A DNA stretch of 64,000 bases from Yuukianura sp. NJ FZ-2021 (taxonomy: Eukaryota), in NCBI GenBank assembly GCA_046563655.1, contig CM102287.1:8742001-8806000 (forward strand), written 5' to 3'. This document shows positions 82 to 53,141 of this stretch, piece after piece. The notes below the pieces were generated by a model. The model worked only from the letters and a program-made list of their open reading frames with translations. It searched no databases and had not been told where the DNA came from. Both the position numbers and the translations under genes were made by a program. The number at the start of each line of letters is the position of its first letter. The stretch's first letter is position 1.

Positions 82-248
82 ATCTAAAACAGACAACGTA
101 ATGCTCAAAATCCATATGTGTCGCTGCATTTAGACAACGTAGAACGCAAACTCAGCATTTTCCTCCTGCAATTGTCCATAAGAACATGCTGCATTTCGAT
201 CTTCTGAAAATCAAAAGTCCGTTTCAATTCCAATCTCGAATTTCTACA

Positions 249-1857: not shown

Positions 1858-2312
1858 ATACTTCCGCCATATTCCAAAATTTGGGTTGAAGTAAACTTTT
1901 GGCGGCCTGACCGTACCCACCGGTTTGAAACAGAAACGCAGAAACGTCACTCCTACCTTAACTTATCTAATGTTAACGCGGGTCGTAAAAAGCAGAACTT
2001 ATTCTGATGTCACCCGGATCGGCGAATTTTACTTTGTGTTTCTCTACATTAATGTTTGGCATCACTCAAACACACCCGCTGTTTCAACAAAATAAAAAAA
2101 GAGAACACGGGCATTAGAAATCCATTTTTTGTGTTGCAAAAATTAACATTTGAGTCACTTTTCACTTTTTCGGATAGTAAGAGTAACTCAACTGCTTTCA
2201 CTTGGATTTCATCAGTTTTGTCCTCAGCAAGTTCTAATTCAACCACTTCAAAAATATGGAGCATACTAAACTTAACGTTGAGCATTTTCAGCCAAAAATT
2301 TCAAATCCATTT

Positions 2313-4393: not shown

Positions 4394-4836
4394 CTTTACA
4401 AGGTTTCGAGAATAATGTTTAGCTGTACATTGATCAATTTCAAAAAATACTCTAGTTTAGACACTTTATTAAAAGTTTCTTTGTAGGTACATATGTGTGT
4501 TTTTTTCAACGTTTACCGTAAGTTTTGTGAGTAGTTTTTCCGTAGTAAATTTTTCCGCCAAATGTTGGGTTGTAGGGGCGTAATATTTTTCAGCTAAAAA
4601 AACAAACAGTATGTCTAATTGATTTCTTCGAAAAGTTGTGTCAAATTTGTTTCCCTTGTGTTGATTTTTCCGGTGTGACTTTCTATTTTATCTTCACAGT
4701 CAATTAGAACACGCCCATAGTTTGAACAACTTCGGTGCTTAAAATTTGCGTTCAGTTCCAATTCAAAAGCAATTTATACCAAACACAGTTACAAATTCAC
4801 AAAAGAGAAAGGATTCCTAAATTTTAAGTCATAGTC

Positions 4837-6649: not shown

Positions 6650-6966
6650 AACAGAAAATCAAAAACAAAATTGTGTTGAACAAAATTTGGTTTCGAAATT
6701 TTGAAATTTAGATTAATTAAAATAATTGATTTCTCCGCAAAACTGTGTCAAATGTTTTCCTCGTGTTGATTTTTGTGGTGTGACTTTCTATTTTATCTTC
6801 ACAGTCAATTAGAACACGCCCATTGTTTGAACAGCTCCAGTTTTTTAGAATTTGATTTCAATATTTCAGAGACGTTTGAAGTTTGTTGAGCCGTGAAATT
6901 CAAAAGCAATTTATATCAAACACGGTACAAATTAACTAAAAACAAGAGATTTTTAAATTGTAAGTT

Positions 6967-14964: not shown

Positions 14965-16099
14965 TTATGAGCACATCATTTTCATGGAAGATCGCTTTCT
15001 GTCCAGTCTTCTTGGTCTGTACGGTCTCTCCATAGCTCCATTCCAATACCCTGTATAATCAGAAACAACTTTCAAAATTTTGATTTCAAATTAAAATTTT
15101 GAAATTAAAAGTGTTTCATGTTAAAAACTTACAGTCATAAGGAAGATTCCTCTCTACAAGTTTAGGAATAAACTCGGTATCAAGCGCTTCGTGATCTTCA
15201 ATATTCCCTCCAAGAAATTTTGGCAAAATGTCTGGAGATAGGGCTTTCGCAAGGTCATTCACACTCGAATGGAAGAAGATTCGATCTCGAATTTTTTGCG
15301 GAAGAAACTGTACTCCAATTTTGTAAATTGGCCAAAACAGGGCTGACGCATTGAGAACATGCAGTCCTGCCACTTTGATCGGAAACATTTGCTAAAAAAT
15401 TTAATAAACACATTAATTTTAATTTTGATCAAAAATTTAAACATAAAAAACTGAAATGGTTTTGTTTTTCAAAAACTTTTTACTCACCAGCCCCACTCTA
15501 ATTGCAAATCTAATTTCAGAGATAGTTGCTTGTCGAATTTGAGAAAAACTGAGTCCACTGACATCAATAATGCCAATTGCTCCGTTCAATTGCAAATTGG
15601 AGTCTTGGAAAATTTCTTCAACTATAAATGCTGCCGAATGCTCAACATCACGTAGAGAAGCAATTGAGGTGTTCCAATGACTCACTCGAGCATGTAAGAT
15701 TCTTGCTCCATTGAAATTGTGTTTCAAGAGATGTACAGCATCCATGTTGTAAGCGTCGGTAAATTTTTGAGGGCAAAGTCCTTCCACAAGACGCATGTTT
15801 TCTTGCAAATTTTTGTAATATTTGTTGTAAGCTATAACAGCTTTATCCACGTCGTATCGTTTGCAACGCACAAATTTTGCTATAAATGGTCCGTCTGTTC
15901 TTCTCGCTAACGGAAATTCAGTTTCTGTTGACACAATGCAAAAGAAAACAATAAATTTCAAAGAAAATGAATTTTGACATTTCAGAAATTTGGAACTTTT
16001 GAAATTTTCAAAACAAAAGGTACCTAGGACGCGTTGGCGCACAATTTCAATCAGTTCGTTCATTTTCTGTTCAGATGGATGCTCAACTATGGGCTCCAT
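14965..16099 (-). CDS. CRAL-TRIO (Sec14) lipid-binding protein, alpha-tocopherol transfer protein/clavesin-like; 4 exons
   Basis: FIAKFVRCKRYDVDKA (CRAL-N), GAIGIIDVSGLSFSQ, FPIKVAGLHVLN, KIRDRIFFH and ILPKFLGG motifs; final exon joins in frame. Confidence 0.9.
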
Positions 16100-16480
16100 G
16101 ATGTGATTGTTTTTCAATTTATAATTATTTATTAATTACAAATTCACAAAGATTAACTTTGAGTTAAATTTTTAGTAATGTTGTAATGTTTTCAGAATTT
16201 TAAAAAGTGAGGTTTCAAGTTGTATGTGAGCTTAGGTATTACTTTTTTAAGTTTCACAATTTGAGTGATCTGTAGTTAGGAAGATGTTGTGGCCCTTTAT
16301 ACTGGAAGGTGTGTAAAAACCAGTTGTTTTTGTGCTTGCGTCATGTAGTAATGTTAAAAACATTGGACCCTCCATTGGCTATGTATAACGTCATCTTTTC
16401 CTCATTTCAAGTCTTTGCAAAATTCCCACAATTTAAATTGGCAAGTAAATTGTGGGGCCACGGTCAAGTTTACACATTAC

Positions 16481-19567: not shown

Positions 19568-20125
19568 ACAGAGTGGTAAAATGTAGGCTAGCTAACGGCC
19601 ATACAAAGCTTTTCACTAACTGCTGCTAAGAAAATTTGTCTACCTTACCTAGTTACAACGCACACTTACATCATACATGATGCAAAGTTTAAAAACTTAA
19701 AAGCCAACATTATTCGAAATGATAACTTACTGCACTTGAGAATAATCAAAACGCCTTTGAGTTATGGGTGATTTTAATATTAAACTAATTATTATATTAT
19801 GTTTCATTTTTTCAAGTTAATACGCTTTTGTCTCCAAATTTTCATTTTGGTTATTGATTTTTTACTAGAAGAGGAAAGTAGAATGTCTTACCATCATAGC
19901 ATGTTCACCTAACTGAAAAAATTGAACACACGGACAGTCGCTCAAATGTATTCAAAAGCTTAACCATTTGGATATCGCTTCATTTAAGGTTTTTAGAAAG
20001 GAACCTTGCGCGAATTCGTCCGTGGAATTCGACATGCACATTAAAGATAAGCGTGCCATTTTTTGATTTGTTCAAACACAAAAGCTTGAAAAGTGTCATT
20101 TTGTTTAATGTCAGAGGTTTAAGAA

Positions 20126-20647
20126 ATGATCTCTTCCATTGCAGTCTGTGTAACTCTCACTGCTTTGTCAGCTAGAACAAGTGGTGAGACATGTTCAAAA
20201 TTTTTTGAAGAGCTTTTTTATACTAAATTTTTTCAACAATTAAGTTTTAAGGTTTCTGAACACTTCTTAGCGCTTGAGTGCTACGTTTGTGGAGCAAACA
20301 TGACGGAGATTGGCGCAACACCGGACCCAGCCTGCGGCGATCCCTATGAGCGGAATGCCGCCCATCTCATGACATGCGATGTCGCAAATGTATCAAACCC
20401 TCGCGTAGGTACGAACGCATGCACAAAGTTCAGAACGGAAGAATGGGGTGTGGTCAACGTTGTTCGTTCTTGCATAGCAACTAGAAAAGAACTAACAGTG
20501 ATATGTACTGGAGACATGAGCAAAACGGGTGCCAGGTTCTGCGTCTGCGCAACTGACGGATGTAACTTCGCAGGTCCTAGTATTGGAACCAGCATGTCTC
20601 TCCTTCTATATATATTACTAATCATATTACATATTCTGAACTACTAA
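20126..20647 (+). CDS. Ly6/uPAR three-finger protein (quiver/sleepless-like), GPI-anchored; intron 20184-20270
   Basis: Signal-peptide exon, then LECYVC ... CTK ... VVRSC ... CVCATDGCN and a hydrophobic tail. Confidence 0.88.
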   Translation: MISSIAVCVTLTALSARTSGETCSKFFEELFYTKFFQQLSFKVSEHFLALECYVCGANMTEIGATPDPACGDPYERNAAHLMTCDVANVSNPRVGTNACTKFRTEEWGVVNVVRSCIATRKELTVICTGDMSKTGARFCVCATDGCNFAGPSIGTSMSLLLYILLIILHILNY

Positions 20648-23776: not shown

Positions 23777-26174
23777 TTACAATCTGATGTCTTGATAAAA
23801 TTGAGCTAAAAGTACAGTTTCTCCAGTTCCTCGAATTGGCGGTATTCCTACAATCGATCCTACGTAATATGCATACAGTTGAAGGAAACAAATAGGATGA
23901 AAATTTTCAATTCCAAACCAAATACATTGAAAATGGGCATGAAGTGTAATTGTACTTGGGGGTCTATTGAGTTGAACAAAAGGGCCAACATTAATGTTCT
24001 GTTCAAATAGCTCTGTAGTGTCAAATATCGTTTGACCTTGGAGTTTAAGAACTCCGTTAGACAGTTCTTGATTGCCAAAGGCGTACTCTATGAGGCTGAG
24101 GATTGACCAATTGACTGATAGTCTTTGAAGTGGTTTGTACGTTCGAAAGTAAGCGAAGGTAAATTGCCAAAACCCGGGCGGTTCTTCTGAAGAGTCACTG
24201 AAATAGTACTGGTTGACAAGATATAGCTGTAGGACGCCGTTAACACTTCCGCCTTTAGCTACAAAGTTATAAATTAGGTGTAAAACGGACGTAAACATCG
24301 TATCTTGAAGTAAGTCAAGGTCAGTGACCTCCTGACCTTGACCCTGGCCTTGGCCCAGCATTTGAACTTGGCGCTGACCCTGACCAACCATTTGGGGCTG
24401 GCTTTGACCTTGGCCCTGTCGTCGGATTTGACCCCGCCCCTGACCTTGACCTTGATTCTGACCAGGGCGTTGACCTTGAGGCGGATTCTGACCATCAATT
24501 TGACCTTGACCTGGATTTTGACCAGGGCGTTGACCTTGACCTTGATCAGGGCGTTGACTTTGACCTTGATTTTGACCAGGGCGTTGACCTTGAGCTGGAT
24601 TTTGACCTGGGCGCTGACCTTGAGCTGGAATTTGGCCGGGGCGTTGACCTTGACCTTGACCTGGACTATCGTCGTCTTCATCTGGAGCCAAGTATTTGAC
24701 CCCCCGGTCTGAGTTAGTTTGTAAATTAAAGTGATAGTTGATATTGAAAACATCTCCGTCATTGAATCCATCCCAAGTTTGACTAAAGCCCAGTATAAAC
24801 TGGATGAAATCCAAACCATGTGCCCTAGGATTGGTTGTGTCATAGGTCAAGTAATTGTACTGACCCACGAGAAAAGCACCAATAAACGGAGGAGGCGCAA
24901 CCGTCTGCGTTTTGATTGGAAGGCGATACTTATACGTAAGCCAGCCTTGCATAAAATCACGGTCATCCAGCGGTATTCCACCTTGACCGTGGAATTCAAT
25001 CAGAAACAACTGAGCCAGAAACGTATGACTATCAAATACACGCTGCAAATTGAACGTTGTACTGGCAAAGCGATTTGCCAGTCCTTCATCAAAATCAGTT
25101 CCAACGTAGTGATAATTGTACAAAGCGCGCTGATTTACGAAAAAAGTGGTCGTGGTTTGTTTAAGTTGTTGAAGTTTTGTTGAACCGTCTCCAATGATGG
25201 GTACAGGAGGTAGCGGTAAATTCAAACTTTCATAAGCTTGTACCAGTCCAAAATTTCGGTTGGAACCTTTTGGCGCGAAATTGTAAATTCCTATAATCTG
25301 TCCAGTGGCAAACGGTGGCTGACCCGGATTTGGTCTATGCTCGTAAGTAACTCTGCCGAAAATGTAGAAAAAATTGGTCAACTCTTTTTTCTTTTGCGGT
25401 TTTTTCGTAATGAAGCCCCATGTATGTCGAATTCCCTGAAAGAAGCACGTATGCGGTCCAATACCGTTTCGAACTGTAAGTTCCCGTCCTGGTCGTTGGT
25501 AAAAACATTGGTAAAAACCGGAGCCGAAGATGGCAATTTTGGCCAGTAAAGTTTGGCCGTAAAAGTAGCACCGATACCATCCAATTTCGCGGGTAAAAAC
25601 ACTTAAGATAAGTGAATTCTGCTCAGTCGATACGCGTAAACCGCAAAAAAATGGGCCAGTCCCTTCAATAACTCCGGTTAGATGACGGTTATTCCCGGCG
25701 CCACGAGCAGCTGACATGGACAAATTTCCACCTTGACGCTCTGAAGCCATTGGTGCATTCTCAGACTCTTGAATTGAACTGCCAAAAATTCCCGCCTTTT
25801 TTGAATTTTGATCCAACTCATACAAATTTTCCTTTGAAAAAGCATGTTGAGCGTCGTCGTGAACTCTGAGCCTTTCGGCATTTTGCGCGGCGGGAATTGA
25901 TAAGGGAATCCAGTTAGGCAGGCACTGTGTACCGGGCTTTAGGCGTTCCAGTGGAGAATTCAAACAAGAATGTGTTAGTGGTCTGAAATTGTGCTAAATT
26001 TTCAGAAATTTGAATTAGAAATATCAAATTATTTCAAATTTTGGACAAGAACAAAAATAAAATTTGAAACTTTTACTGTACATTGGAATGTGTGAATCCG
26101 GAAGGCAGTGCGTAGCGACGCGTTTGAGAATAAACTTCAAGGAAAACTAGAAGCTGAAGAAACGTTTTGAACAT
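23777..26174 (-). CDS. Orphan, probably secreted, aromatic-rich protein with a central Gln/Gly/Pro tandem repeat; at least 2 exons
   Basis: Short first exon MFKTFLQLLVFLEVYSQ... splices (CA|GTAAAAG ... TTTCAG|A) in frame into the 728-aa ORF. No family recognised. Confidence 0.7.
24330..24665 (-). repeat. Coding minisatellite, ~30-bp unit encoding QGQRPGQN(P/Q)x
   Basis: Repeated ttgaccagggcgttgaccttga units on the + strand; translates GQRPGQIPAQGQRPGQNPAQGQRPGQNQGQ... Confidence 0.9.
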
Positions 26175-33793: not shown

Positions 33794-34837
33794 CTTTTTT
33801 CGTTTTCCTATAAGAAACGTATCAAAAACGATTAGATAAGGCAAAATGTCGAGAACTTAGTAGTAGTCATCAATTATTAACTTACCTTTTCACTGCCCAA
33901 AACCAAAATAAATCAAGTAATCGTTAATTAATGCAAGTTTTGTTTACTTTACTTACATCAATTAGTACCACTCCTCCGTTTATAATGTTAAGTAGAGGCA
34001 GCTGCTGTGTGTGTACCCTTATGTCGTTATGTCTTTGTGACACTATTGCCTTGCCTTGCCGCTGAAAAACTGAATTTGAGACGGAATGGGTTTGTGCAAT
34101 TCCAAAGTATGGAACAATAAATTTCAGTTTCAAATTCATAAATCATACATAAATCATAATTTTAGAAAAAATCATTTTATACTCGTTCTTCCAACCTAAT
34201 TGATAATTAACAATCCTCACATAACTACACGCCACTAGTTCAATGAATTTTCTCCGGTTGTCCTACCTTTAAGTAACATCTATTTGCATCTTGCATTTTA
34301 ACATCAACGAATTTCCAGAAACTGGAAGACGTTTAGTATCAAAAATTGCGAAAAGTTGCACGAGCATATCATAAATACTGAAAATATTTAAACTTTTTTA
34401 CTACTATAAGATTCAGAAAGAGGAGGAGAAAAGTATTTATACTTTCTAATATTGTTTTAGCAGCTTAAGTGCATATAAAATAATATATGTGTTTTTCAAA
34501 AAAAAATTGCATCGACACAATTTATGCCTGGAAGCCGATGACATAGTTTTCTTTTTAAAAAAATCGTTATTTCAAAACCTTTTAAGTTTAAAACAACGGA
34601 ATCCCATTTTTTTTATTAATCATTTAAAAAGGAATGACGTCTTTGGCATTTTATTTTGGAGAAAAGCTTCTCCTTAACGTAAAACGAAAAAGCATTTAAT
34701 TTTTGTTTAAAAAAATACGAATTACCAGTGTGGCGAATTCCAAAGAACAGAAAAGACGCCTTTTTGCAAATACGGGGAAAAAGCACAAAAATTTGCAAGT
34801 TATAAATCATTCTTGCGTCTGAAAGTTTATTTCAAAA

Positions 34838-36186
34838 ATGAAACTACTTACTGACACTATCCTTCAATTTCTTCGATATAGCACGCAATACTGTCTGTTC
34901 TACAAAACTTGGCCATATAAATGGAACAATCAATTAAATTTACTTAATAGCGCATGTCGAACGCAGCAAATCCTACATTATTGTTATGTTACATTACTTT
35001 TTAGTCATCAAATTTATCTCACTGTGTTTGGAATCAAGTTTATTCTGTATCCTGAAACACTCGGATTCACATTTCGAGTTATGTATGCTGTCAACTACAT
35101 TTCATTTTTGATGAACTCAATTTCACAATTTTGTATTCTGATTCATGAGAAAGAATTTCTTATTTTCGCAAACAGAAGCTTGACCTTCTACAAAACAGTG
35201 CAAGGTAAGAATAATCAAAACTAAAAAAATTTAACAATGCATGTTTGAGTAACATGCAATGTCGATATGTGTAATAAACATCTTATGTACTATTCCAGAT
35301 GTCTACATAAAACAGAGGGCGCCACGTCCTCAATGGCAATTTGAGCTAGAAATGCTCATAACAGGATGTTTTTCAACGTCCATTACAACTCCGTTGTCAA
35401 TATTGCTGTTCTGGGCACAGTTTCCTGAATTACGGCAATTTGTACCCTCGCATCTTCTGCCTTACTCCAACCACTTCTTCATTGACATCTTCGTCTCATT
35501 TCCACTTGCGTTCTACTTGTACAACACATTGTGGACTTCAATCTTGTCTTTGGTTGGATTTCTGACAATTTGGATCTATTCAATAATTTTCATTACTCAA
35601 GAGCTCAAGTACGTTTAAAAACGGCGGCAACTTTTGAACTTTTTAAACATAACTTTTGATTTTTTTTTTTGCATGTAGTATCAACAAATCGAGCCTTTAT
35701 ACCAAAAAGGCACTTCGTAACCCACGGACGATATGTCGCCTACATGATGCTCTACAAATTTTGACTAAGGATATGGAAGGAATCGCCAGCGATTTTCTCC
35801 TGATGTGTGCAAATGACATTGCAATTGGCGTAATCGTTCTTTCAAATTTTCTGCTCATTCGATACCACCATATTTTTTCAGGCATATTTGTACTTATATT
35901 TCTAACACTGTCTGGATTCTCTACAATGTCACTCGTTCTTTGCTACATTGAATTTGGCTCTCTAAATGCACAGTCTAAAAAAGTCATTTCGAATTTACGA
36001 AATCATCGTAGAAACTTGGCCGGAATTGGGAGAAAAATCATCGGAATGAAAACTAAAGCCATGATGCCTCTCAAAATCCATTTGGGCACGTTTGGCTACT
36101 ATCAAAAAGGAAATACAATTCGAGTTGTTGGAAAACTTATTACTTATACTCTACGATTTTTGATTCTCACTAAAAGTTCATTTTAA
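34838..36186 (+). CDS. Divergent GR-like chemoreceptor, YT(L/M)RFLILTK subfamily, copy 1; 3 exons
   Basis: Multi-TM protein; C-terminus PLKIHLGTFGYY...LITYTLRFLILTK shared with the copies at 40671 and 42395. Confidence 0.75.
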
Positions 36187-36200
36187 ATCAAAAAAAAAAC

Positions 36201-36255
36201 TGGACAGATAGGCAGACAGACAGATAGACAGCATAAAGTAGCTTTGACTACTTAA
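36201..36255. repeat. (GACA)n microsatellite plus terminal hairpin; 3' fragment of a Helentron/DINE-1-like element
   Basis: GGACAGATAGGCAGACAGACAGATAGACAG followed by the AAGTAG-CTTTGA-CTACTT hairpin; same layout at 38138-38196. Confidence 0.5.
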
Positions 36256-36444
36256 AATACACGAAACGAGAGCGTTATGTTCCAAAAATTTTATTTACAA
36301 CGTTTGGTTCGTAGTTTTGTAGGAACAAAACTAAACTTAAAATTAAATATTAAAATTAGTAATATTAATATTAAAATTAGTAAAAATTAAAATAAGATAT
36401 GTAACAATTTACTTTTTGTGTGTGTGTTTGTAACTCCCGGGTTC

Positions 36445-38865
36445 TCAAAGTCCCAATCTTTTCTCCGCTGTGGCGTATGCTTGAAACCACTTTTTGACAT
36501 CATTTTCCTCTACTTCCGGTAAATACTTATTTTCAAAATAAAATTCCGTATTTGCCGCCTGCCAAATCATGAAGCCAGAAGTTCTATAAGTTCCGCTGTC
36601 CTTGGACCCTGTGCGCACAATCAAGTCCGGTTCAGGAAACGGTTGGTCATTTCCCCACAAATTTTGTGTAATTTGATCCGGTGAGGGAGGTCGAGAGGTC
36701 AAGGAACTCGTACTAGCCAACCTATCTACAGCATACACTATTTCTTCCCGCCCATCATAGTCAATTGCAATGTTAATTTGATGTGCAACTCTACCCGCTG
36801 TTAGCCTTTCAATTTCATTAATACATTCCATCATGTCTTCCGTAATACGTTCTTTTTTACCTACATGAGTAATTCGTGCAGAGTATTCATCTGCAATGTG
36901 CTTAAAGTGCTCAAAGTAAAATTTTACGACTTCACGAAGATTGTCGAGCTCAGCCTTCGGCCTTTTGAAATTACTTGCGCTCAATACCCAAAGTGTAACT
37001 GTATGGACTCCAAGACGAAAAGCTTCTCTGACAATTTTCTCAACTGCGTCTGCGCCGGCCCAGTGACCGCGCATGGTCGGAATGCCCTGACCTCTGGCCC
37101 ATCGTCTGTTACCGTCCGGAATCAACCCCATGTGCTTTACAAGCTGTTTTTCTGGATCAACTGGAATCTCCAAAATTTTCGGCTCAGCTGTAGTGATATC
37201 TTCTTTTTCAACAACTTTGGGCTCGGGCAACGGTTCGGTCAATTCCGTTTTGGACACGAAAGTTTCCGTGACCTGGTTGATTTTTTGATTGATTTCTTTG
37301 GCTTTTTCAATTTCAGCAAAAATTTTGACGGTGGTTTTATCCGGATTCCGCACAGGAGCTTCATGTACCTGCTTTTCTTTCTGTTGGTAGACTTCATTGA
37401 ACTCGATCAAGTCATAAGTACATCGGTCCGTCAATCCATAACGGTAGTCAAGCTCTTCGTGTAGAGGAATCATCAAGTCAGTTGCTCTGCCACAAGTAGA
37501 GACCATTTGCTCAACAAATTTGTCACCAGGAAAGGCTTTCATTAAGACTCTGCCGGCTTCCTTGGCTTGAAAGAAGTGCTCTTCCAGTAGTCGTACTGCT
37601 GTGTCAATTGCCTCTTGAAAAGGCATTGACTTTGCCAGAATCAAGATGGAGTTCATGGGCTCACCATCGTTCATTTCCTTGAGTAAACTGCTTATGTCGT
37701 TGGCAAACGTTTGTTGACGACTCAACGCATGGACGTAGTGGATGTATGCGGGATTCAATCTGACGTTTGTCGGAATCTCCATGCCTAGGTAGAGCCAGTA
37801 ACATTCCATTAGCATTGGAGTTGTGACGGAGTAGGTCCGGTGAGTCACATAAGCAGCCAAGTCGTCTCCTGGTGGAGCCATTATTTCGTTATGAAACGAT
37901 TCAATGCATCTGAAATAACGAAATTGACATTAATCGGATGTAAAAATAAAACGAAGGTAGTCAAGTAGCGACAACAAAGAAATAATTAAAATAAAACGAA
38001 GGTAGTCAAGTAGCGACAGAACAAAGAAATAATTGACTTTAACGCGGAATTAGTAAAAAAAAAATTCAATCGTCAAATTTGGCTCATAAAAAGTTTTTTA
38101 CAGTTTGCCTCGAGGTAAAAATTTTATAAATATTGTTCAGACAGACGGACGGACAGACAGACTCTTCAAAGTCATTAAGTAGCTGAGATTACTTAATCAA
38201 TTTAGTAATAAAATTTGCTTTTACCTCACAATTTCTTTGTGATAATGAATCCAACCGGGAAATTTGGAACATTCATAGCGCAGAAACATTGCTGCAGCCA
38301 CCGGAGCCCTCAAGTTTTCCGGTAACGATGGAATTTGTGACAAATGAGTCACGTGACCATCGAGCGCCGCTGTATAAATGTCAACCAGAGTTCGAAGATC
38401 TTTTTCTTCTGCATTCCAAGCCACGAACGTTTCTTCTATAAAGTACAACAGAAGGTTCATGGCGCCAACAATTTTGAAATTTTCTCTCGGTGCGTTTGCG
38501 TAGAGTCTTGAGTAGACCGTGATTGCTTCCAGTGACATATGTTCCGAGATTACATTCATTGTAGGATCACCAAAGTCCACTTCGAAGCCGAATTTCTCCA
38601 AACCGGCGGCTACAGTCATAACCAGTTCCATTGTTGCCTTAGGACCCAATGTTTTCTCGGCTTCAGTAGGCGGAAGTGACCTGATGTCCAGAAATGGCTC
38701 GAAGCAAAGGGAGTGGCCCTTTAAGTGCCCTGGGCCATAAATTGGATGTGTGATAATTCCGTAGTCAAAGTTAATTGCAACTGGCAAACCCTGATGCTTC
38801 GCTGGATGTGCTTTTCCGAGGACTCGGAACGATTCCACTTCCGTTTGCTGAGTCAATTTTGTCAT
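36445..38865 (-). CDS. Bifunctional class I terpene synthase / cis-prenyltransferase (UppS-like) fusion, 701 aa; exons 38865-38225 and 37909-36445
   Basis: GT-AG intron 38224..37910 joins the two ORFs in frame (EIVR/CIESFHNEIMAPP). Terpene synthase motifs: YVTHRTYS, FANDISSLLKE (NDxxSxxKE, 37701-37675), DYRY. cis-PT motifs from 37140: HMGLIPDGNRRWAR, GHWAG, TLWVLSASNFKRP, NIAIDYDGREEI, PDLIVRTG, RTSGFMIWQAANTE, C-terminal KRLGL. Confidence 0.92.
37941..38196. mobile_element. Helentron-associated (DINE-1/HINE-like) element filling most of the terpene-gene intron
   Basis: Tandemly duplicated ~45-bp head AAAATAAAACGAAGGTAGTCAAGTAGCGACA, a CAGA/CGGA microsatellite and a terminal hairpin TTAAGTA...TACTTAA. 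Confidence 0.55.
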
Positions 38866-39020: not shown

Positions 39021-39063
39021 AACTGATTGTGAAAGTAACAGATCCAGAGTCACAGATTTTATA
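39021..39063 (-). promoter_or_regulatory. Putative TATA/Inr core promoter of the terpene synthase fusion gene
   Basis: Minus-strand TATAAAA at 39063-39057 with Inr-like TTACTT and TCAGTT about 27-39 nt downstream. CRE palindrome TGACGTCA at 39200-39207. Minus-strand AATAAA at 36295-36290 after the stop. Confidence 0.45.
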
Positions 39064-39537: not shown

Positions 39538-40023
39538 TACACAAAAAGCAGGAGTCGGATCAGAATCTGTAGCAGGTTACGCCCTTGGTCCGCACCTAAA
39601 TCTCCATAAATTAAACCACAGACTACAAACTCTTATGTCAATTTTGAAAATATTGAACTACGTGTTATGCAAACACGTCAACTGCATAATAATTACGTCT
39701 GGCCGTCAAGCTTGGGATCTTCCAAAGGACGAGGCTATGTAAACGTGTTTTGGTTTTTGTTTCAACTGTTAGCATCATAGGAAAGGCCATTACTTTGGAA
39801 TTTTTTCGATCAATTAAGAATGTGGGATGTTGTAAGTATGACGAGTATGAAACTGGTTAGGCAAGTTTATGAAAATTTTGAAAAAATCTACCAATTTACG
39901 TCAACATGAAAATACATAAAATAAATGACATAAAAACCGGAAATCTTACAATTTGTTTATGTATAAAAACTGATGTGAATGAGTCGTTAAGTTTTGGAAC
40001 TTCAAGTAATTTGATTGGTTGTG

Positions 40024-40207
40024 AATGGGGAGCAAGCCAATTCATCGAATGAATTAGAACGAAGCGAATTTCTCCGAATGGATTTCCCCGAATGTGTCTA
40101 AATCTCTTTCGTTGCAATTCAACTTTCGTTGTAATTGGCTTTGTGGAAATTCATTCGGGAGAATTCCCTTCGTTGTAATTCATTCGATGAAATTGCATGG
40201 AACCATA
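40024..40207. mobile_element. Degenerate foldback MITE
   Basis: Long inverted arms TTCATCGAATGAATTAGAACGAAGCGAATTTCTCCGAATG versus CATTCGGGAGAATTCCCTTCGTTGTAATTCATTCGATGAA; no clean TSD. Confidence 0.65.
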
Positions 40208-40670
40208 TGAGTGTCATCATTGTACATAATAGGATTTATTTTGCCGGGTTGTTGTTCTATGTGTTTTATTGTCAAGTTTGGAATTTGGCGATTTTCACTT
40301 TGTAAATTTGTAATACAGTTCTGTATTTGCTGCTTTCTGTAAATTTGTTGGACTAGAAAGTCCTTGGAGTTTTATGCTGCGGGTAAATCAACCGTCAGAT
40401 CTCATCCAACATTAAATTAACACGGAAGTTGCCGTAGGTAGACCATTATTCTAAAAAGACAACCAAAAATTCCATAAAAATTCGTTTTTGAAGTTTTTGA
40501 CAACTCATTTTAGGAAATTGAGACGTGTAATTTTTTAACAACCTACTTTCGATAAATGTCAATTAAGCAGACTATATTTTTTTTGTGGGGGTCACTTATT
40601 CCTCTGTCGATCGAGAGAATTGAACTATTACTTTGGTTGACTTTGAAAGAAAGTTGTTTCAAAAATCGAA

Positions 40671-42023
40671 ATGAAAATTGTAAGTGTCAAAACTGTTCAA
40701 ATTTGTCACTTCATATCCGAGTTCGCTGGATTTTTTAAATCCACGCCTTACACATGGAAGATAAATTCAAACTTTCCTATTCTGCGGCCTAGGAAAGATC
40801 GGATCATTCGGCGGTGTATTGCACTTTTGTTCGTTTGCTATCAAATTTTTCTCATTGCCCTTCCAATCTTCAATCCATTTTCGAGCCGCGTAGGTGACTT
40901 TTCAAGTCATATTCGAGAAGTTACAAATTTCGTGTTATGTACAATATGCACTATCACTCAAGTATGGATGTTCGCTTACGAAAAAGAAAGTGTACTAACG
41001 TTACAAAGAACTTTTATGTACTTTCAACACATTGAACGTAAGTTGAACGTATTTAGCATCATACACATAACGTTTGACACTTAATAATCCAGTATGTATA
41101 TAAAATTTTTTAGGTACGTACTTAAATGTACGGAAAGCCCGCCCATATTGGCAACTTGAACTGGAACTGCTTCTCGCATTATGTGCTGGCGTGTGTATTA
41201 CCGGCCCGATACTTGGAGTTTTAATTTTACTAAATTTTCGTAATTTTGAATATGACGTCACCACATATTTCCCGCGCATTCATCCAGTATTCGACCTCTC
41301 TGCGCAACTCAGTCTAAATGCATTTATATATGTCACAGTTGGCAATTCCATTGTGGTAATTTGTGTAATCTGTGCTGTTTATATATACACTATGCTATTT
41401 ATCATACGCGAGATCAAGTAAGCCAAAACATTTTCCACTTAAAGTAAAACACAGTTACACAACTAATAAGTTTATCCTACGTTCTAAATTACGTTTTTGC
41501 ATGTTTTAGTATCAACAACAAGAAGACTTTGTGTACCAGAAGTGAAATGAGAGATGTTGAAGCTATTATTCAAATTTACAAAAATTTACAAATTTTGGTG
41601 CTCGAATTTGACTCTATGGTAGGTGAGTGGTTGTTGATGTTGGTCAATGACTTGATGATTGCCTTAACCGTAACATGTAACTTTATGGTCGTGCGATTTC
41701 ACCACACCCTACCCTATTCATCACTGGCACTTATGGGAATTGCATCTCTATGTGGTGTCGTATACCTGATAATATCATATCACAAATTTGGAGCTGTGTA
41801 TACATCATCACTTAAAGTCAAACTTGGACTTCGGCGGCACATTCAAAGGGCATACCACGGTCAATCTAAGCCTATCATACTCAGGGTCACCAAGTCCCTC
41901 CAACCCTTTAAAATTCACTTTGGCCTATTTTCATTTTATACAACGCTGGGCGCCCTACGCATCATGAACAAGACGCTGAACTACACAATGCGCTTTCTAA
42001 TTCTCACAAAGAAGTTTGTGTAA
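40671..42023 (+). CDS. Divergent GR-like chemoreceptor, YT(L/M)RFLILTK subfamily, copy 2; 3 exons
   Basis: Same intron positions as copy 1; C-terminus QPFKIHFGLFSFY...YTMRFLILTKKFV. Confidence 0.75.
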
Positions 42024-42394
42024 AGTGCAATGTTTTCAAGTACCGTATCACTAAAATTATATACAAATTTTTAAAAAAAATTGTTGGTAGAAGGAATAAG
42101 GCGGAAGGTTGACTCGGAAGTTGCAACCTTGGAATTCCCAGGTTTGAATAATTTCGTGTTTTTGGAAATTGAAAGCTTCAACAACTTTAATCAATATATC
42201 TGCGGCTCTTCGGACTTTATTGCACTTAAAAATTAAAAACGAGCTGAAGTTGAATTTCCTTTTTAGTCTCACCGAATATTAGTACTAATAGTCATAATAG
42301 TACCATAGTCAGAAGTTGGTGGAAAAATTCAGTCGCAAAATTGAAATTGGCAAATTCAGGTGGAACGACTAAAAAGTTTCAAATTAAAATCAAC

Positions 42395-43736
42395 ATGAAG
42401 ATAATTAGTAACAGGGCTGTTCAAACCTGTAGATTTATGGCCTACTACAGCAGTATTTTCAATTCAATCCCGTACAAATGGACGCTAAATTCAACACTTC
42501 CGGCTTTACATTCACGAAAACGTCGTATTTGGTGGCGCCTCTCTGTTCTGGGCTTTCTAGTTCACCAAATTTTTTTAACTGCAATGTTAGTCACCAAACT
42601 ATTTTCAAAAACGAAAAAGGGAATTTCCTCCAATGTACTGCAGAGTATGAACTATGTATGCTACATGATTGGCACACTCGTACAACTTTGGTGTCTGGTT
42701 AACGAAGAGGATGTTATCTTATTTGCAAAACGGAGCCTTACCTACTTCTACAAAATTGAAAGTAATGAAATAATTTTTTTTGTAAAACCTTAAAAAACTT
42801 AAAAAAAACTAAAATTTTTCTTGAAATCTCATTTTCCGTAGGTCTGTACGTTAAGCCCCGTTCACACCTACCTTTTTGGCAGCATGAAATTGACGTTATT
42901 AGTGTCATTTGCATTTGTCTATGTACGGTGAGTCCAACTTTGGGCGTCTTAATCTATTTACACTTCTCACCGTTGGAGTACGATATAACTACATATATAC
43001 CCCGTTTCTATGGTCCACTCAACACTTTTCTGCAAATAGTTATAAACAAATATTTATTTAGCGTAATTGCAAATGCAATGGCAATTATACTCATGATCGG
43101 AACAACTTGGGTGTACGCCGTCATATTCACAACAAATGAAATCAAGTGAGCCAAATATTTCCAAAATCTAAAATTTAAACCTAACTGTCGACCAATACTG
43201 TCCCTTGTTTGTGATTTTCCAGTATCAAGAAAACCACGAGCGTATACACACAGAACAAAATTCGGAAAATTGAAACCATTCTACAAACGTACACAAATTT
43301 GCAACTTACCGTGAAACATTTTGACTCACTCGCGAAAGAGTGGATTCTGATGATCGTCAATGACCTTATGATTGCCCTCACTGTTTTATGTAACTTCCTG
43401 ATGATTCGATTTCATCATTCCCAACCATATTCCTCACTGTCACTAATGTGCGGACTGTCTGTAGGTGCCATTTTGTTCCTTGTCTTAACGTACGACAAAT
43501 TTGGTCAAGTACATGCAAGTTCTTTAAAAACAAAACTTGCTCTTCAAAGATACATGCTTTGGTCAGGCCAAGTAGGGCAGTACAACGTACTTCTCAAGGT
43601 CACAAAGTCACTTCAACCTTTCAAAATTCATCTCGGAGGGTTTTCGTTTTATACGAAACGAAATACACCCAGAATTGTAAACAAAATTTTAACGTACACA
43701 ATGAGGTTTCTTATTCTCACGAAAAAATTTCTGTAA
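42395..43736 (+). CDS. Divergent GR-like chemoreceptor, YT(L/M)RFLILTK subfamily, copy 3; 3 exons
   Basis: MKIISNRAVQ start parallels MKIVSVKTVQ of copy 2; C-terminus YTMRFLILTKKFL. Confidence 0.75.
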
Positions 43737-44338: not shown

Positions 44339-45882
44339 TTATGAAATAGGCTGCATTTCACTTCGTCTACGATCTGATTTTTTAGAACAGAAAATTAACC
44401 GCTTCAGCTCCTCTCTAAATTTGGAGCTCATGAAGCAGTAAAGAACAGCATTTGAAGCAGAAGTGAGTCCCGATAAAGTGTTGCTCGTGGCAACGAGTAC
44501 AGGCGGTGGTGGTGGTATAAACGTGTCGATCATATGAGTTATAATCGTTATAACGTTAGATACCAAAAATACTCCGACAATTGTAAACAAAATTTTTGTT
44601 ACTGAAACTTCAAGAGTTTGCGTCTGAGTCATGGTTCTACGTACGTCATTCATTTCTCGAATCTGAAAAATCAACAATAAGCAACATAAAAAACAAAAAC
44701 AACTTACAAAAACAAAAATAATTACTTGTTTTGTTTTGAGAAATAATTTTAATTACCCTGTTGTAGGTCAAAGACGTCGTAATTACAAGAATAGTCAAGG
44801 GAATTATTCTCATGACCGTGAACGACCCCCAATTGACGTAGTAAACTTGATATGCTTTGTTGTATGTTAAGTCTGTAAAACCCCATTCGTAGGCTACAAG
44901 CACATCCCCATCATATACTGGCCAACTTATTCTTTCAAACCACACTGGCAGATCATAAAAAATGGCAAACAGTAGCACTCCCGTACAGTAGATTTTGGAC
45001 CATTTCCAAGAAAACCATGTTGATTTCTTGAATGGATGACAAATGGCAATGTAGCGCTCGAAACTGGCCAATACGATACAGTAAACAGAAGCAACACGGG
45101 CTGGAAATGAAAACAAGAAAAAATGAAAAAAAATTTCAAGAAATTACGTCAGATCTGAAAATTTTTATTTGAAACCCTAACGAGGGAACATTCCCAACCG
45201 GATGTCAAGTTTTTGAATTTAAAAAATACAGGCATATTCTGTATGCCAAAAGAAAATTTTCTGCAGTAGTTTTGGTTGCCAACGTCAAAGAAAAGTACCC
45301 CGAGCTGGGCTCGAACTCATGGCCCACTCCAGAAAAAGAGAAAAAAAATATTTTATGCCGAATTATTCAACAGGTCGGGGTAATTTTTTTTTGGCGTTGG
45401 CAACCGAAACTAGTGCTAGAAAATTCTCTTTCGGCATACAAAATATTACTGTATTTTTGAAATTAAAAAACTTGACATCCGGTTGGGAATGTTCCCTCGT
45501 AAGTACCGGTTGTTCCAATTGAAAAGACTGACGGAGCGACAAATGGAAGAAAATATAGTAAGTAGTTGACCATTGTGCAATGATAAGCAAAAACACTTGC
45601 TAATCCATTGAGTAGAAGGAGATTGACTAGATATATTGTATCCATGGATATGAGAAGAGTTAGAAGAAAGTTAAACGTAGACCTCATGGAATGACGTGAG
45701 AGTACTACGACGGAAATCAAATTGACGCAAATTGCACAAATGCTTAAGATTGTCGCTGGGAGCCCTTCTGCTACATATAATTCCCAAGTTTCATATAAGC
45801 AAGTTGAAACGAGTTTCACTTGTGCAAAAGTAATGTTTTCTGCAGCAATTCCATGTGCTGCCCATACCTCTTCAATTCCCAT
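44339..45882 (-). CDS. Class A (rhodopsin-family) peptide GPCR, FMRFamide-receptor-like; exons 45882-45507, 45100-44757, 44662-44339
   Basis: NLISVVVL..MRSTFNFLL; SVYCIVLASFERYIAICHPF; TM7 SNAVLYCFMSSKFREEL; splice phases verified. Confidence 0.85.
45181..45499. mobile_element. MITE, PIF/Harbinger (same family as 5174-5416), in GPCR intron 1
   Basis: TIR CGAGGGAACATTCCCAACCGGATGTCAAG with TAA TSD (45178-45180, 45500-45502). Confidence 0.9.
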
Positions 45883-46225: not shown

Positions 46226-47930
46226 TTAGAATGTTAGAATTAGGAAAATTGCATTTTGTAGAACAATGTCCCCGAAAAGGCGAAGAATGTAATTTTTTGA
46301 CTCAAGCGTAAAGTGAGATCCAACTTGAATGCAAATGGGTCTTCTTGATTTCCAGAACTTGTTATTATACCTCTTCCACTGTCGATTCGTTTGCAGATGC
46401 TTGCCAATATTACAACATTCCAGGGATTGTGAATACACAGATACTGCCAATTCAATTCCAGTTTTCAAAATGTAGACTACTAGTAAGCCAATCGCACTAG
46501 AAAAAGCCATGAGTATAGCTACTCTTTGGAATGGATATTTCGTTGCTTCTAGTACACCGTAAATGCAAAGTGTTAACAAAGCTGCTCCCGCGTAAATTCC
46601 AAATTCTACAACTAGGGAGAAAATATCATTTCCCCACATGTTAAATACTTCCTGAGCTGTGTATGAAGAATGTATGTGGGATACATCTCTCCGGGTTTTG
46701 ACTTCTTTAAGGTTGTCACTGCAAATGATTTACAAGAAAAATTGTTTAACACGATTAAATTTATATTGTCTTTATAATACACTGCACTACTTGAAAGCAA
46801 GCCACTATGCTTGTTGGTAGAGTAATAATTTGTATGCTATGCTGCATTAGGGAATATGTACATATTGTATACGTGTATACGCCATAGAGTAGTCAAGGCG
46901 ATTTTCGTTTTTTTGTCTTTTATCGAAAGAAAATAAACGAAGCATCCCCTTGACAACTCTATGGCATTGTATATTTGTACTATGTATTGCATATTTGCAT
47001 ATATGCAGTGCGTATACACTGTGTATAGGTATGTATATATTTATTGTGTATGCTTTGTGTATATGCAATGTAATATGTATGCAACATACTACCTAGTAGT
47101 ATATGCATAGAAGAAATTTTTAACTAGGTTTTATACCATAACTGCTGCATTCTAGACAAGGAAACGTTCGCGTACAAGACAGCACAGTTTATGCACAAAA
47201 ACAGCGAGAATGCTCCGTGCACAATCCCTATACACACGAGTGTCACCGAGGTAGAAAAGCAACAGTGGAACAAAATGTGTGGAAATAGTTGCGATGAATC
47301 TGGTTCTCGCCAGGATATAGCTGCTGTGAACATCCGTTTGATTAATTCACCAGTTTCATTCCGTGTTAAATACACCAAACATAACATTTCTGGCACGTAT
47401 ATCCAGCGGTGTAACGTGAACCAAAGATTCACAAGTTGTAGCCCCATTCTGACCTTGTCAAATCCCTTATTCATTGGAGTTATCTCTATAAAAACGTTTT
47501 AAAAACGCATTACAAATATTAACCCCTGAAAATAGTACAATTAATGCAGTCTGATTTGTCACTTGAGTCATGTACCTGAGAGCTCTAAGTTTTCCGAAAA
47601 ATTTGTGACCAGAATCCGGATCTCATCGATGTAGAATAAATGCCAGCATTGCACGCCAATGATAATGGTTGACTGACAAATGGCTCCCAGCAGCAACATA
47701 ATTAGTTGTGGATGCCGTTCATAACGTAGTCCAAACATCAAAGAGATGAATATAACCCACAAGTTGTCAAGTATGCTCAATATTGTGGCACACTTAACAA
47801 CGTTAGGACGTTGTGACCTGATTACTTTGTAGCCATTGGATTTCTTTTGAATGTCAAATGTATAAGAGTACCAGAAAAATCCGGAATGAAATGTGGGCAG
47901 ACTTACGTCGACTGCATTTAAAGCAGCCAT
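46226..47930 (-). CDS. Divergent GR-like chemoreceptor; 3 exons
   Basis: Exons join in frame (last acceptor TTTGCAG|TGACAACC); multi-TM; C-terminus FWKSRRPICIQVGSHFTLESK...NAIFLILTF. Confidence 0.7.
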
Positions 47931-51045: not shown

Positions 51046-51820
51046 TTTTGTTGAAATTTTGTTAATTAAAAAATTTGAAAGTTTATTTTTGAAATTACTT
51101 TATTCAAGATGTAGACCCACCTTGTATTTATAGTTGAGTTCATTAAACTAATGTGGTTGGTGGCTGTGGACAAAATACAGTAGGTTTTGAGCTACCGCAT
51201 TCCTGCGTCTTTTGTCACATTTACCACAATCACAATTAACGCTAATGAGTTGATTGTCCGATATATTTTATCGCAAAATGAAAAATTATCCTGTAACACT
51301 TTTGAGACACACAGGACATGAAAACATGCTGCCCGACATAACAGATGAAAACAGATAACGTTTACAAATTGTAATCGTTATCTGTTTTCCTAAATTTTTA
51401 TTGATTGTAAATTACAATTAAAAAAAAATTGACAAAAACGGAACATTTTTTACCAAAAACAGCAGTTAGCTGGTCCGACACCAATAATGAAAGGAAACAA
51501 ATTTTCAAAATTTACGGTTTATCTAAAAATTGCACGAATTTTTTCCAGTTTCGACTTAATGTATGTACACGTCCTTTTTCAATGGGAATTTGAATTTTAA
51601 AAAAAAACGCCTCTTTTGGAACAATTAGCAAAGAACTTCATATCTAGATCAAAACTGCAGCCTTGTCTTGTTAAACAATTTAAAAACGTCGTCGTTCCAA
51701 CTCACTCGCTCTTCTTTAAAAAACATGAGAAAACTCCTTTTCAGGGAAAACGAAAACCAAGAATTGAAAAAAGTTCCAGTATTGATTGAAACTTGGCGCT
51801 AAAAACTTGACATACTAAAA

Positions 51821-53141
51821 ATGGACGTCAAAATGTTCCGTTTTTTCGTCAACTTGGCGTCGACTCTATGTTTCATTCCGCTTGACATGAAGGAAAATTT
51901 CATAATAGTGAAGTCACCGTCTACACAAAAGAACACAAAAGCCAAATCCGTTTTTTTCATAAAAAGATATTTGAAGTACTTCATTTTTGGATTAATCGTT
52001 GGTCGTACTCTATTTCTTACAATTAAGCTCCTTCAACATGCTATTGGACAACTTGACCTGTCACTTGCGCAGGCGCAGCTACTAAGTAGACAAGTAGCCT
52101 TGTGCTGGGTCACTGTAACACAACAAATGACGATTCAATTCCAAAAGAACGATATTGCCTACTTTTTTAACCAATTCATCAAACTTCAACAAATTCTTGA
52201 ACGTAAAATTTAAACAAAGACATTTTGAAATAAAATTGAACATAACCAATCAGCAACAAGATTGGAGAAAAAATTGATAAAAATATTTTTAAATTTTCGT
52301 TTTTTTTTTGTAGAAAGCGATCAAACCCGAAAAGAATTTCGACATAGTTGGCTCATACCAAATGGAATGATCAGTTGCTATGCATTGATCAGTGCCTTTT
52401 CAATAACAAAGTATGCTGTGGGTAAAGTCACTCAACCAATGACTCAAATTGAAGTATCGTCAAATCCATTGATCAGAATTTTAGAGGGAACGTTTGAAAT
52501 TTATTCCCAGACGATGTGTGCTCTAAACCTCATCATTCTTGTGTACGTTTCCGTCGTATATTATCTTACCGCAAGACGCGGCCTCAAGCTGAAGCTTCGC
52601 GAGTAAGCGATTCTTTTTCTAACTAAACTCTATTACTAATTATAATTTTCTAATTTAACTATAATTTAGTTCCCAAAATGGTGCTGACGATGTTCGTGAC
52701 CAGTTTGTCTGGTACAGACATCACCAACTTCTCAACATTGTGTACAACCGAGCATTTGAAACATTGAATACGACCAGTGGAGTAGCAGGGGGCGCTGTGC
52801 AATGTATAAGATCCATTTACGCCTTTGTACGACTATTCCGTTTGGGATATGTTGGTGCTGAACATTTCGTACAATTGTTTAGCATGGTGACATCAGCGGT
52901 AATAATCTTTGCCCAATGTGGTTTAAGTTGCTCGTTCTATGCACTCAGCATGCAGTTGATCAATGGGTGGACCTTAAGGGCCCATCTAACAAGAAATGAA
53001 TTTGATCAGAAGAATCTGAAATCGTTTCAGCCATTGAACATTCGCGTTGGAATATTTTTTATGTTCAAGCGACAATCGAAATTGACCATGGTTCGATTCG
53101 TACTGGATGGAGCTGTTAACGCTCTCCTTGGACTAGAGTAA
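51821..53141 (+). CDS. Divergent GR-like chemoreceptor; 3 exons
   Basis: Multi-TM protein; C-terminus LKSFQPLNIRVGIFFMFKRQSKLTMVRFVLDGAVNALL. Confidence 0.7.

Follow-up and report, generated by a model that had tools for sequence, protein, structure and literature searches.

In this work, a predicted two-exon fusion gene on the minus strand of contig CM102287.1 of Yuukianura sp. NJ FZ-2021 (assembly GCA_046563655.1) was analyzed. It lies in a stretch of 64,000 nucleotides (positions 8,742,001 to 8,806,000 of the contig), which is called the window below and whose own numbering is used throughout. The gene would encode one polypeptide composed of an N-terminal class I terpene synthase of the microbial type, a flexible linker, and a C-terminal cis-prenyltransferase (cis-PT), and the positions of its parts are given in Table 1. 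Residue numbers refer to P0001, the 494-codon open frame translated from 36445-37929 of the minus strand, unless the whole protein is named.

Structure of the fusion gene

The two exons were joined by script across GT-AG borders (exon 1 ends in ...GTG AG before GTAAAA, and the intron closes with TTTCAG), which gave a frame of 2106 nt and 701 codons with a single, terminal stop. The spliced protein is colinear with three uninterrupted homologues from a metagenome (P0003, P0004, and P0005). Exon 1 corresponds to the N-terminal half of the terpene synthase domain and includes the site of its Asp-rich motif (IEETF); it is 26% identical in alignment to the N-terminal parts of P0003-P0005, and it had no match in the Pfam scan when taken alone. 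The linker varies in length and is poorly conserved across the four fused proteins, and no family matched it in the same scan. The intron contains an exact 31-nt direct repeat (37943-37973 and 37988-38018, spacing 45 nt), which is a local tandem duplication. Moreover, short repeats of the GACA type occur in the intron (38138-38161) and in the 3' flank just downstream of the gene (36203-36232).

Table 1. Predicted fusion gene and associated sequence features in the window.
Feature	Position	Strand	Basis
Predicted fusion gene, two exons, 701 amino acids (aa)	38865..36445	-	sequence-derived gene model
Exon 1, coding, ATG at 38865-38863, 213 codons + 2 bases	38225..38865	-	open reading frame and sequence
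Intron, spliceosomal type, 315 nt, phase 2, GTAAAA...TCGTTATTTCAG, GC fraction 0.30	37910..38224	-	sequence and script-joined frame
Exon 2, preceded by ...TCGTTATTTCAG, ends in TGA	36445..37909	-	sequence
First part of exon 2, C-terminal half of the terpene synthase domain	37369..37909	-	PF19086 match and alignment A1
Linker, ~75 residues, K/E/P/T-rich	37144..37368	-	alignment A1, columns 401-485
cis-PT domain, homomeric UPPS type, own C-terminal RLG	36448..37143	-	profiles, alignments, model, Foldseek
Stop codon TGA	36445..36447	-	sequence
AATAAA, candidate polyadenylation signal, 150 nt past the stop	36290..36295	-	consensus match only
TATAAAA, candidate TATA box, ~190 nt before the ATG	39057..39063	-	consensus match only

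The cis-prenyltransferase domain

The C-terminal domain (P0001 270-493, DNA 36451-37122) matched PF01255 over the full profile (positions 1-219 of 219) with an E-value of 2.8e-53 and 181 bits against a cut-off of 27, and the uppS model TIGR00055 with 154.4 bits against a cut-off of 109.55. Both matches are far beyond chance. The scores against all 15 listed NCBIfam PRK models of narrower scope stayed below the cut-off (e.g., 163 vs. 304). An earlier first-pass annotation, made from the DNA letters, had described here a compact domain without introns, carrying six motifs and an R-x-G tail of its own, and had concluded that it was not a duplicate of the animal enzyme DHDDS; all of this is supported. 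The six motifs were found at 36445-37140 of the minus strand, namely IPDGNRRWAR (270-279), GIPTMRGH (282-289), TLW (312-314), DQPFPEPDLIVRT (428-440), RTSGFMIWQ (449-457), and KRLGL (490-494), the last followed by the TGA at 36447-36445. The sole intron of the gene lies upstream, within the terpene synthase part, and the cis-PT domain itself is uninterrupted.

The fusion protein ends in ...AEKRLGL, and the RLG tail occupies R491-G493 of P0001, or R698-G700 of the 701-aa protein. In the HMMER alignment with E. coli UPPS (1jp3_A), query residues 7-235 (of the 236 of the domain) pair with chain residues 19-244 and 'ekrlg' stands opposite 'errfg', which places RLG opposite R242-F-G244 and the Asp of IPDGN opposite D26 (numbers counted from the alignment). 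The tail is also aligned to the RFG of S. aureus UPPS and of tomato CPT2, and in alignment A3 an R-x-G occupies the aligned place in 12 of 14 other cis-PTs, P0126 and P0140 being without the Gly. The catalytic Asp loop and the His about 17 residues further on, IPDGNRRWA...GH as compared with IMDGNGRWA...GH in E. coli UPPS, are invariant across the four fused proteins. In the substrate-binding segment RT(S/G)GE-x-R-x-S-x-F, both Arg, the Ser, and the Phe are present (RTGSKDSGTYRTSGF).

The comparison with 34 PDB sequences separates the domain from DHDDS. Homomeric cis-PTs scored 111-120 bits (lavender lavandulyl diphosphate synthase 120.1, S. aureus UPPS 118.9, tomato CPT2 116, E. coli UPPS 115.3, and tomato NDPS1 111), whereas human DHDDS, of the same PF01255 superfamily, scored 70.2-70.3 bits (rank 28-29), and its alignment covers query residues 5-214 of 236 and ends before the tail. 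In the animal DHDDS/NUS1 complex, the RxG sits on NUS1 (NgBR). The domain is thus neither closest to DHDDS nor without an RxG of its own, and it does not belong to the DHDDS type. The C-terminal RFG of plant plastid cis-PTs is also aligned to the RLG of the window; since these plant enzymes are homomeric and have their own RxG, the tail marks the type of enzyme and not, by itself, a transfer.

The AlphaFold2 model of the cis-PT domain had a mean predicted local distance difference test score (pLDDT) of 90.5, and the top Foldseek matches listed were all homomeric cis-PTs, with a query TM-score (TMq) of 0.80-0.91. The homodimer model reached an interface score (ipSAE) of 0.74 vs. 0.01 for the best of 3 controls, with at least 98% of contacts agreeing between runs and a partner pLDDT of at least 84. 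Of proteins with solved structures, 21 of the 30 homodimers attain the mark used for a dimer, and none of the 23 single chains does. Since UPPS dimers have already been solved, the pass may reflect memory or likeness. Sequence and fold, with the dimer model in agreement, assign the domain to the homomeric UPPS type.

The terpene synthase domain

The terpene synthase half was recognized by PF19086 (Terpene_syn_C_2) on P0001 23-117 with an E-value of 8.5e-12 and 45.7 bits against a cut-off of 23.7. In P0003-P0005, the same family scored 56.9-62 bits, and the match runs across the site that the intron has in the window. The NSE triad (NDISSLLKE), the RY pair (DYRYGL), and the sensor Arg (R31 of P0001) are kept and aligned in A1, and the frame is intact over about 400 residues; these three elements figure in the list of terpene synthase motifs in PMC13638087. 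No relative of P0001 residues 1-200 reached E ≤ 0.001 among 204 candidates of a search by word index with limits on protein length, and a profile of the synthase half (A4) recovered only P0003-P0005 among 8000 candidates scored in the same manner. More distant kinship of this half, e.g., with the synthase clades of springtails and mites, is compatible with searches of this kind. The full-length model of P0003 had a mean pLDDT of 53, and its Foldseek hits find again the cis-PT half only.

Relatives and the fusion family

A word-index search of proteins of 271-865 aa returned three that carry both PF01255 and PF19086, namely P0003-P0005 (654-686 aa). They share the whole architecture with the window's protein, with 37-38% identity to exon 2 and 43-45% over the cis-PT part. 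P0006 follows with 39%, and after it come many UppS proteins labelled as Patescibacteria (32-40%). An unrestricted HMMER scan of 1.84 billion representative proteins brought up 13001 at E ≤ 0.001 and 92 at E ≤ 1e-30; the best match was the fused P0005 (199.8 bits), followed by one at 160.8 bits. As far as these searches reach, the fusion family consists of the window and three proteins of one metagenome dataset among 5.8 billion clusters.

P0003-P0005 are encoded on contigs L081-L083, whose identifiers have one common dataset prefix. On L083 (7.3 kb), the 4.9 kb upstream of the gene hold just two open reading frames (ORFs) of at least 80 aa (80 and 81 aa), and the GC fraction there is 0.36-0.40 vs. 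0.47-0.49 in the gene. Upstream of the called start, both L081 and L083 carry conserved coding sequence (...YSG(E/Q)DLI..LLYLET...DGY(K/Q)IKRPV) that has no ATG and stands behind ...TTTATTTAG, which points to a further upstream exon. To judge from such sequence features, L081-L083 look like eukaryotic contigs. The fusion would thus occur in at least two eukaryotic sources whose proteins are only 37-38% identical.

P0140, the sister of the fused clade, is a 236-aa protein from a metagenome contig of 5246 bp. It has a non-ATG start exactly at the domain border and ends in RRFED, not in R-x-G, and may represent a single exon of a further eukaryotic fusion. None of 20 longer cis-PT relatives examined by Pfam scan contained a terpene synthase domain. 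Other fusions of the UppS type were present among these 20, with acylphosphatase before the cis-PT in five (P0150, P0157, P0166, P0170, and P0229), subtilase before it in one (P0205), and UPF0047 behind it in one (P0265). The N-terminal 345 residues of P0165 had no family match and are unlike the synthase profile (hhalign probability 0.2). The Atlas clusters nearest to P0001 were actinobacterial SQS_PSY+Prenyltransf fusions (0.78-0.80), which is below the level taken as evidence. A giant-virus origin found no support, in that tblastn confirmed 0 of 58 pattern matches in viral contigs.

Phylogeny and origin of the cis-prenyltransferase domain

A clade of the window, P0003, P0004, P0005, and P0140 was recovered in all four trees, with a support of 96 in FastTree with 238 sequences, 98 in FastTree with 430 sequences, 91 by the SH-like approximate likelihood ratio test (SH-aLRT) in a quick IQ-TREE run with 97 sequences (LG+C20+F+G4), and 100/98 by ultrafast bootstrap and SH-aLRT in a careful IQ-TREE run with 48 sequences (LG+G4). 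The set of 48 was picked by hand from the 97 after the first trees had been seen. Sequences covering fewer than 180 (238-sequence tree) or 170 (430-sequence tree) profile positions were dropped, as were the near-duplicates P0271, P0272, and P0273, and L081-L083 were left out of the 430 as copies of P0003-P0005. In the 48-sequence tree, P0006 branches next (99/84), and P0232, P0125, and P0208 come after it; all four are metagenomic proteins. The wider neighbourhood is a clade of 44 sequences in the 430-sequence tree (support 98), whose few named members are two metagenome-assembled genomes (MAGs) labelled as Bacteroidota (L031 and L045), an 'uncultured bacterium' (L010), and P0015 and P0038, whose clusters include proteins of Candidatus Babeliales and of a 'bacterium'. 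Beyond a 92/98 branch of the 48-sequence tree stand 17 sequences from Patescibacteria, DPANN, archaea, Chloroflexota, and Bacillota, together with two others. L002, L003, and others are titled 'uncultured Gammaproteobacteria', and their cis-PTs group with sequences of Levybacteria and Microgenomates (93 and 99 in the 97-sequence tree); such record titles are probably unreliable as taxonomy.

The first-pass annotation had been reminded of UppS from Patescibacteria or archaea. For the motif this likeness stands, since a GTDB scan with the pattern [IL]I[PA]DG[NMD]RRW found it in Levybacteria, Woesebacteria, and DPANN archaea (35-39% identity), in a search that is biased to lineages with a motif of the IPDGNRRW type. 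As a statement on kinship it has been neither borne out nor refuted; the nearest relatives in the trees are metagenomic proteins, Babeliales, and MAGs labelled as Bacteroidota. Placing the window clade as sister to five Microgenomates sequences costs 9.8 log-likelihood units and is not rejected by the approximately unbiased (AU) test (p = 0.342), for which the group was defined with the tree already at hand. The same annotation had taken the RxG tail as a sign of horizontal acquisition. The tail alone is no such sign, as plant plastid cis-PTs have it too, but acquisition itself, with a foreign and ultimately bacterial origin, is the best reading of the material. As the nearest relatives are already fused and lie on eukaryote-like contigs, the transfer may have been of the fused gene and not necessarily direct from a prokaryote, which suggests that the fused gene, and not the domain by itself, was the unit moved or inherited.

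Genomic context

Neighbouring frames matched the Pfam families 7tm_1 (44646-45143), QVR (20123-20647), and CRAL_TRIO (15437-16135). The flanking ORF at 41448-42023 fell to arthropod-only protein clusters at 0.95-0.97, and the nearest named family, 7tm_7 at 0.86, is a lead only. The base composition of the fusion gene is that of its surroundings, with a GC fraction of 0.446 and, at third codon positions (GC3), of 0.442, compared with 0.35-0.49 and 0.30-0.54 in 14 neighbouring frames; its relative synonymous codon usage correlates with that of the pooled neighbours at r = 0.65.

The stretch was found in five DNA runs, four of one sample and one of another study with another organism code. In run X1, a contig of 1503 nt (36470-37972, record 4) takes in exon 2 together with 62 nt of intron sequence. 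Contig depth in this run was 207 for exon 2 and 224 for exon 1, within the 183-235 of the flanking ORFs, although it is one figure per contig and hence a soft point. The run of the other study (X5) holds a contig of 821 nt (36605-37425) with 11 differences, and the flanks are covered there at similar likeness. All five variants listed in exon 2 fall on third codon positions; four are synonymous and lie in the cis-PT part, and the fifth is H325Q, in the synthase part of the whole protein. This pattern fits purifying selection in what is a small, pre-filtered sample, with 1015 further differences beyond those listed. The view of the first-pass annotation that the gene is no contaminant is supported by the colinearity restored on removal of the intron, the arthropod-type neighbours, the host-like GC3 and codon usage, and the presence of the gene in the second study's run. 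The intron, TATA box, and AATAAA that it had cited are all there, the latter two as consensus matches.

Several further features of the window were observed. Contigs of runs X1 and X3 contain a joint from 38162 to 36231 with 'AT' between the sides, which could stem from misalignment at the shared repeats, from a different locus, or from structural variation around exon 2. Short multi-exon frames with hydrophobic stretches like those of seven-transmembrane (7TM) proteins and without a Pfam match occur at 34823-36186 (+), 40647-43736 (+), 102-8553 (+), 46226-46729 (-), and 51803-53141 (+); these arrays, which flank the fused gene on both sides, are probably tandem, divergent gustatory/chemoreceptor genes. 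The bins 40018-40518 and 45028-45528 have a summed contig depth about 20 times that of their neighbours in three runs of one sample, which is raised in the other study as well, and show many loose ends and strand-switch joints; they look like high-copy repeats or mobile elements. A frame of 738 codons at 23777-25993 (-) has no Pfam match and includes an extended stretch of GQ(R)PGQN-type repeats; it may encode a low-complexity secreted or structural protein.

Discussion

We hypothesize, with moderate confidence, that the locus is a nuclear fusion gene of an arthropod-like animal, of foreign and ultimately bacterial origin, which encodes a self-feeding bifunctional enzyme. The fused family was seen on eukaryote-like contigs only and its cis-PT half falls among prokaryote-type UppS, and the gene is therefore best seen as foreign to the animal dolichol pathway. 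Its parts could have been taken up separately, or the fusion could have existed before the uptake; the intron and the host-like codon usage would reflect a later adaptation to the host. Because of its Asp loop, its RT...R-S-F segment, and its own RxG, the cis-PT should act as a homodimer that needs no NUS1/NgBR partner. The dimer would condense isopentenyl diphosphate onto a short allylic primer to a short Z-prenyl diphosphate, which the tethered terpene synthase would ionise and cyclise, so that the substrate pool would be self-fed and apart from the host's all-trans farnesyl and geranylgeranyl diphosphate. Since the cyclase would be unable to use a C55 chain, the cis-PT would be expected to stop at the short product, like NDPS1, zFPS, and CPT2 of tomato. 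The short chain length, the channelling of the Z-substrate, and the route of acquisition are the parts of this scheme that we infer.

Several observations weigh against this hypothesis. The Asp-rich DDxx(D/E) motif of the synthase is replaced, with IEETFV in the window where P0003-P0005 have IDDGF(K/E) or IDDGVE, so the cyclase half may be weakened or inactive. In the cis-PT, four residues are inserted after RTG and the usual Glu of RTxGE is absent (RTGSKDSGTYRTSGF vs. RTGGEHRISNF); the insertion is common to P0003-P0005 and P0140, and P0006 has a longer form. The last three residues, the RLG tail included, were modelled at pLDDT < 50. On chain length, no usable signal came from the sites that correspond to A69 and L137 of E. 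coli UPPS; the window has Val and His there, and the His is also found in P0003-P0005 and is common among relatives. Expression and splicing are predicted from the sequence. With regard to origin, the trees were built without metazoan DHDDS, RER2, or plant cis-PTs, for which the PDB score comparison was used in place, and nesting among bacteria rests on a few named sequences (Babeliales and MAG titles). Furthermore, the deep branches are weak (79 in the 97-sequence tree and 59/86 in the 48-sequence tree), and the bootstrap of the latter had not settled (correlation 0.959). Finally, the matched contigs are short and none bridges the fusion gene to a neighbouring gene.

The alternative that survives best, although we consider it unlikely, is that the cis-PT half works alone and makes polyprenyl diphosphates of medium or long chain, e.g., towards a lipid carrier or a polyprenol used in defence, and that the synthase half is degenerate or a scaffold. 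It would agree with EETFV in the window where P0003-P0005 have DDGF(E/K), with the nearest named relatives being ordinary bacterial UppS and the uppS model being passed, and with the variants, which are synonymous in the cis-PT part and change a residue in the synthase part. However, the NSE triad, the RY pair, and the sensor Arg are kept in a synthase frame that is intact, Glu can also bind Mg2+, and the fusion has been conserved between proteins of only 37-38% identity, which argues that the halves are selected together.

Somewhat less probable again is that nothing was transferred into animals, in that the gene descends from an old, vertically inherited eukaryotic fusion with a homomeric cis-PT that was widely lost, or that it passed between eukaryotes with a deeper bacterial ancestry. 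The three closest relatives are indeed fused and on eukaryote-like contigs, plant homomeric cis-PTs with an RxG score nearly as high as the bacterial ones among PDB chains, and the synthase half has no detectable relative beyond P0003-P0005. Against this, metagenomic and prokaryote-type UppS reach 160.8 bits vs. 120 for the best plant PDB chain, the named sequences nearest in the trees are bacterial, and the family is tiny, being confined to the window and one dataset. That a chimeric or contaminated assembly has attached a microbial gene to animal DNA by mistake is very improbable, since, despite the short contigs, one of them runs from exon 2 into the GT-AG intron with its GC of 0.30, the depth matches the flanks, and a second study holds both the gene and its surroundings.

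The proposed bifunctional enzyme resembles several known systems in part. With bacterial UppS/UPPS (E. coli 1jp3 and S. aureus 4h8e), it shares the fold (TMq 0.86-0.90), the full PF01255 match, the Asp loop, the Arg and Ser of the substrate-binding segment, and an RxG of its own, and a homodimer is predicted, but identity is about 30%, the insertion after RTG and the missing Glu set it apart, and here the domain stands behind a synthase and a linker in an intron-bearing gene of an animal-like genome. Fungal and bacterial bifunctional synthases, such as those of variediene, fusicoccadiene, and ophiobolin, also have a class I cyclase and a prenyltransferase on one chain with a long flexible linker, in the order cyclase-linker-prenyltransferase, and thus supply their own substrate. 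Their prenyltransferase is of the all-alpha trans type and makes all-trans geranylgeranyl or geranylfarnesyl diphosphate, whereas the one described here has the unrelated cis (UPPS) fold and Z-configured products are therefore expected. The Pfam scan reported no trans-type (all-alpha) prenyltransferase family at the C-terminus, where the domain is PF01255. The short-chain cis-PTs of tomato trichomes (NDPS1, zFPS, and CPT2) supply Z-prenyl diphosphates to terpene synthases. They are likewise homomeric and RxG-bearing and come near to this domain in score and fold (110-116 bits, TMq 0.80-0.87), but they are separate plastid-targeted plant proteins from separate genes, and here the two functions are fused. 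The two activities and the linker of bifunctional terpene synthases are described in PMC11474042 and PMC12130500, and the RxG motif is required for activity according to bioRxiv 10.1101/139675.

The synthases of springtails, mites, and fungus gnats are also of the microbial type and encoded by arthropod nuclear genes, often with introns. In springtails, the text of PMC13638087 gives 277 genes of 26 species, 55% of them with introns, and it discusses arthropod synthases of the microbial type as old gene transfers, as does that of PMC11665903. The main texts of these two papers describe no cis-PT fusion and contain no occurrence of 'undecaprenyl', and one supplement of PMC13638087 makes no mention of prenyltransferase, undecaprenyl, PF01255, fusion, or UPPS. 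No paper on a natural terpene synthase fused to a cis-PT was found in the full-text literature searched, outside the scope of which lay the supplements of PMC11665903 with possible domain architectures. Thus, trans-prenyltransferase/cyclase chimeras in fungi and microbial-type synthases in springtails and mites are known, and the pairing of a cyclase with a cis-PT was not found in the literature searched. We tentatively propose, as a claim that is more doubtful than the hypothesis given above, that this would be the first natural bifunctional terpene synthase of the cis type, passing a C10-C20 Z-prenyl diphosphate to its fused cyclase, and the first homomeric UPPS-type cis-PT functioning in Metazoa.

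If the enzyme is active, it would represent a new architecture for terpene biosynthesis, and Z-configured substrates, and hence unusual skeletons, would be predicted in an animal. It would also mean that an animal can hold a partner-independent, bacterial-style cis-PT beside the expected DHDDS/NUS1 system. The gene would be a compact case of a foreign gene fitted to its host, marked by the gain of an intron, a codon usage like that of the host, and signs of purifying selection. Should the self-feeding hypothesis be true, irregular or Z-derived terpenes would be open to the animal by a private, all-in-one route.

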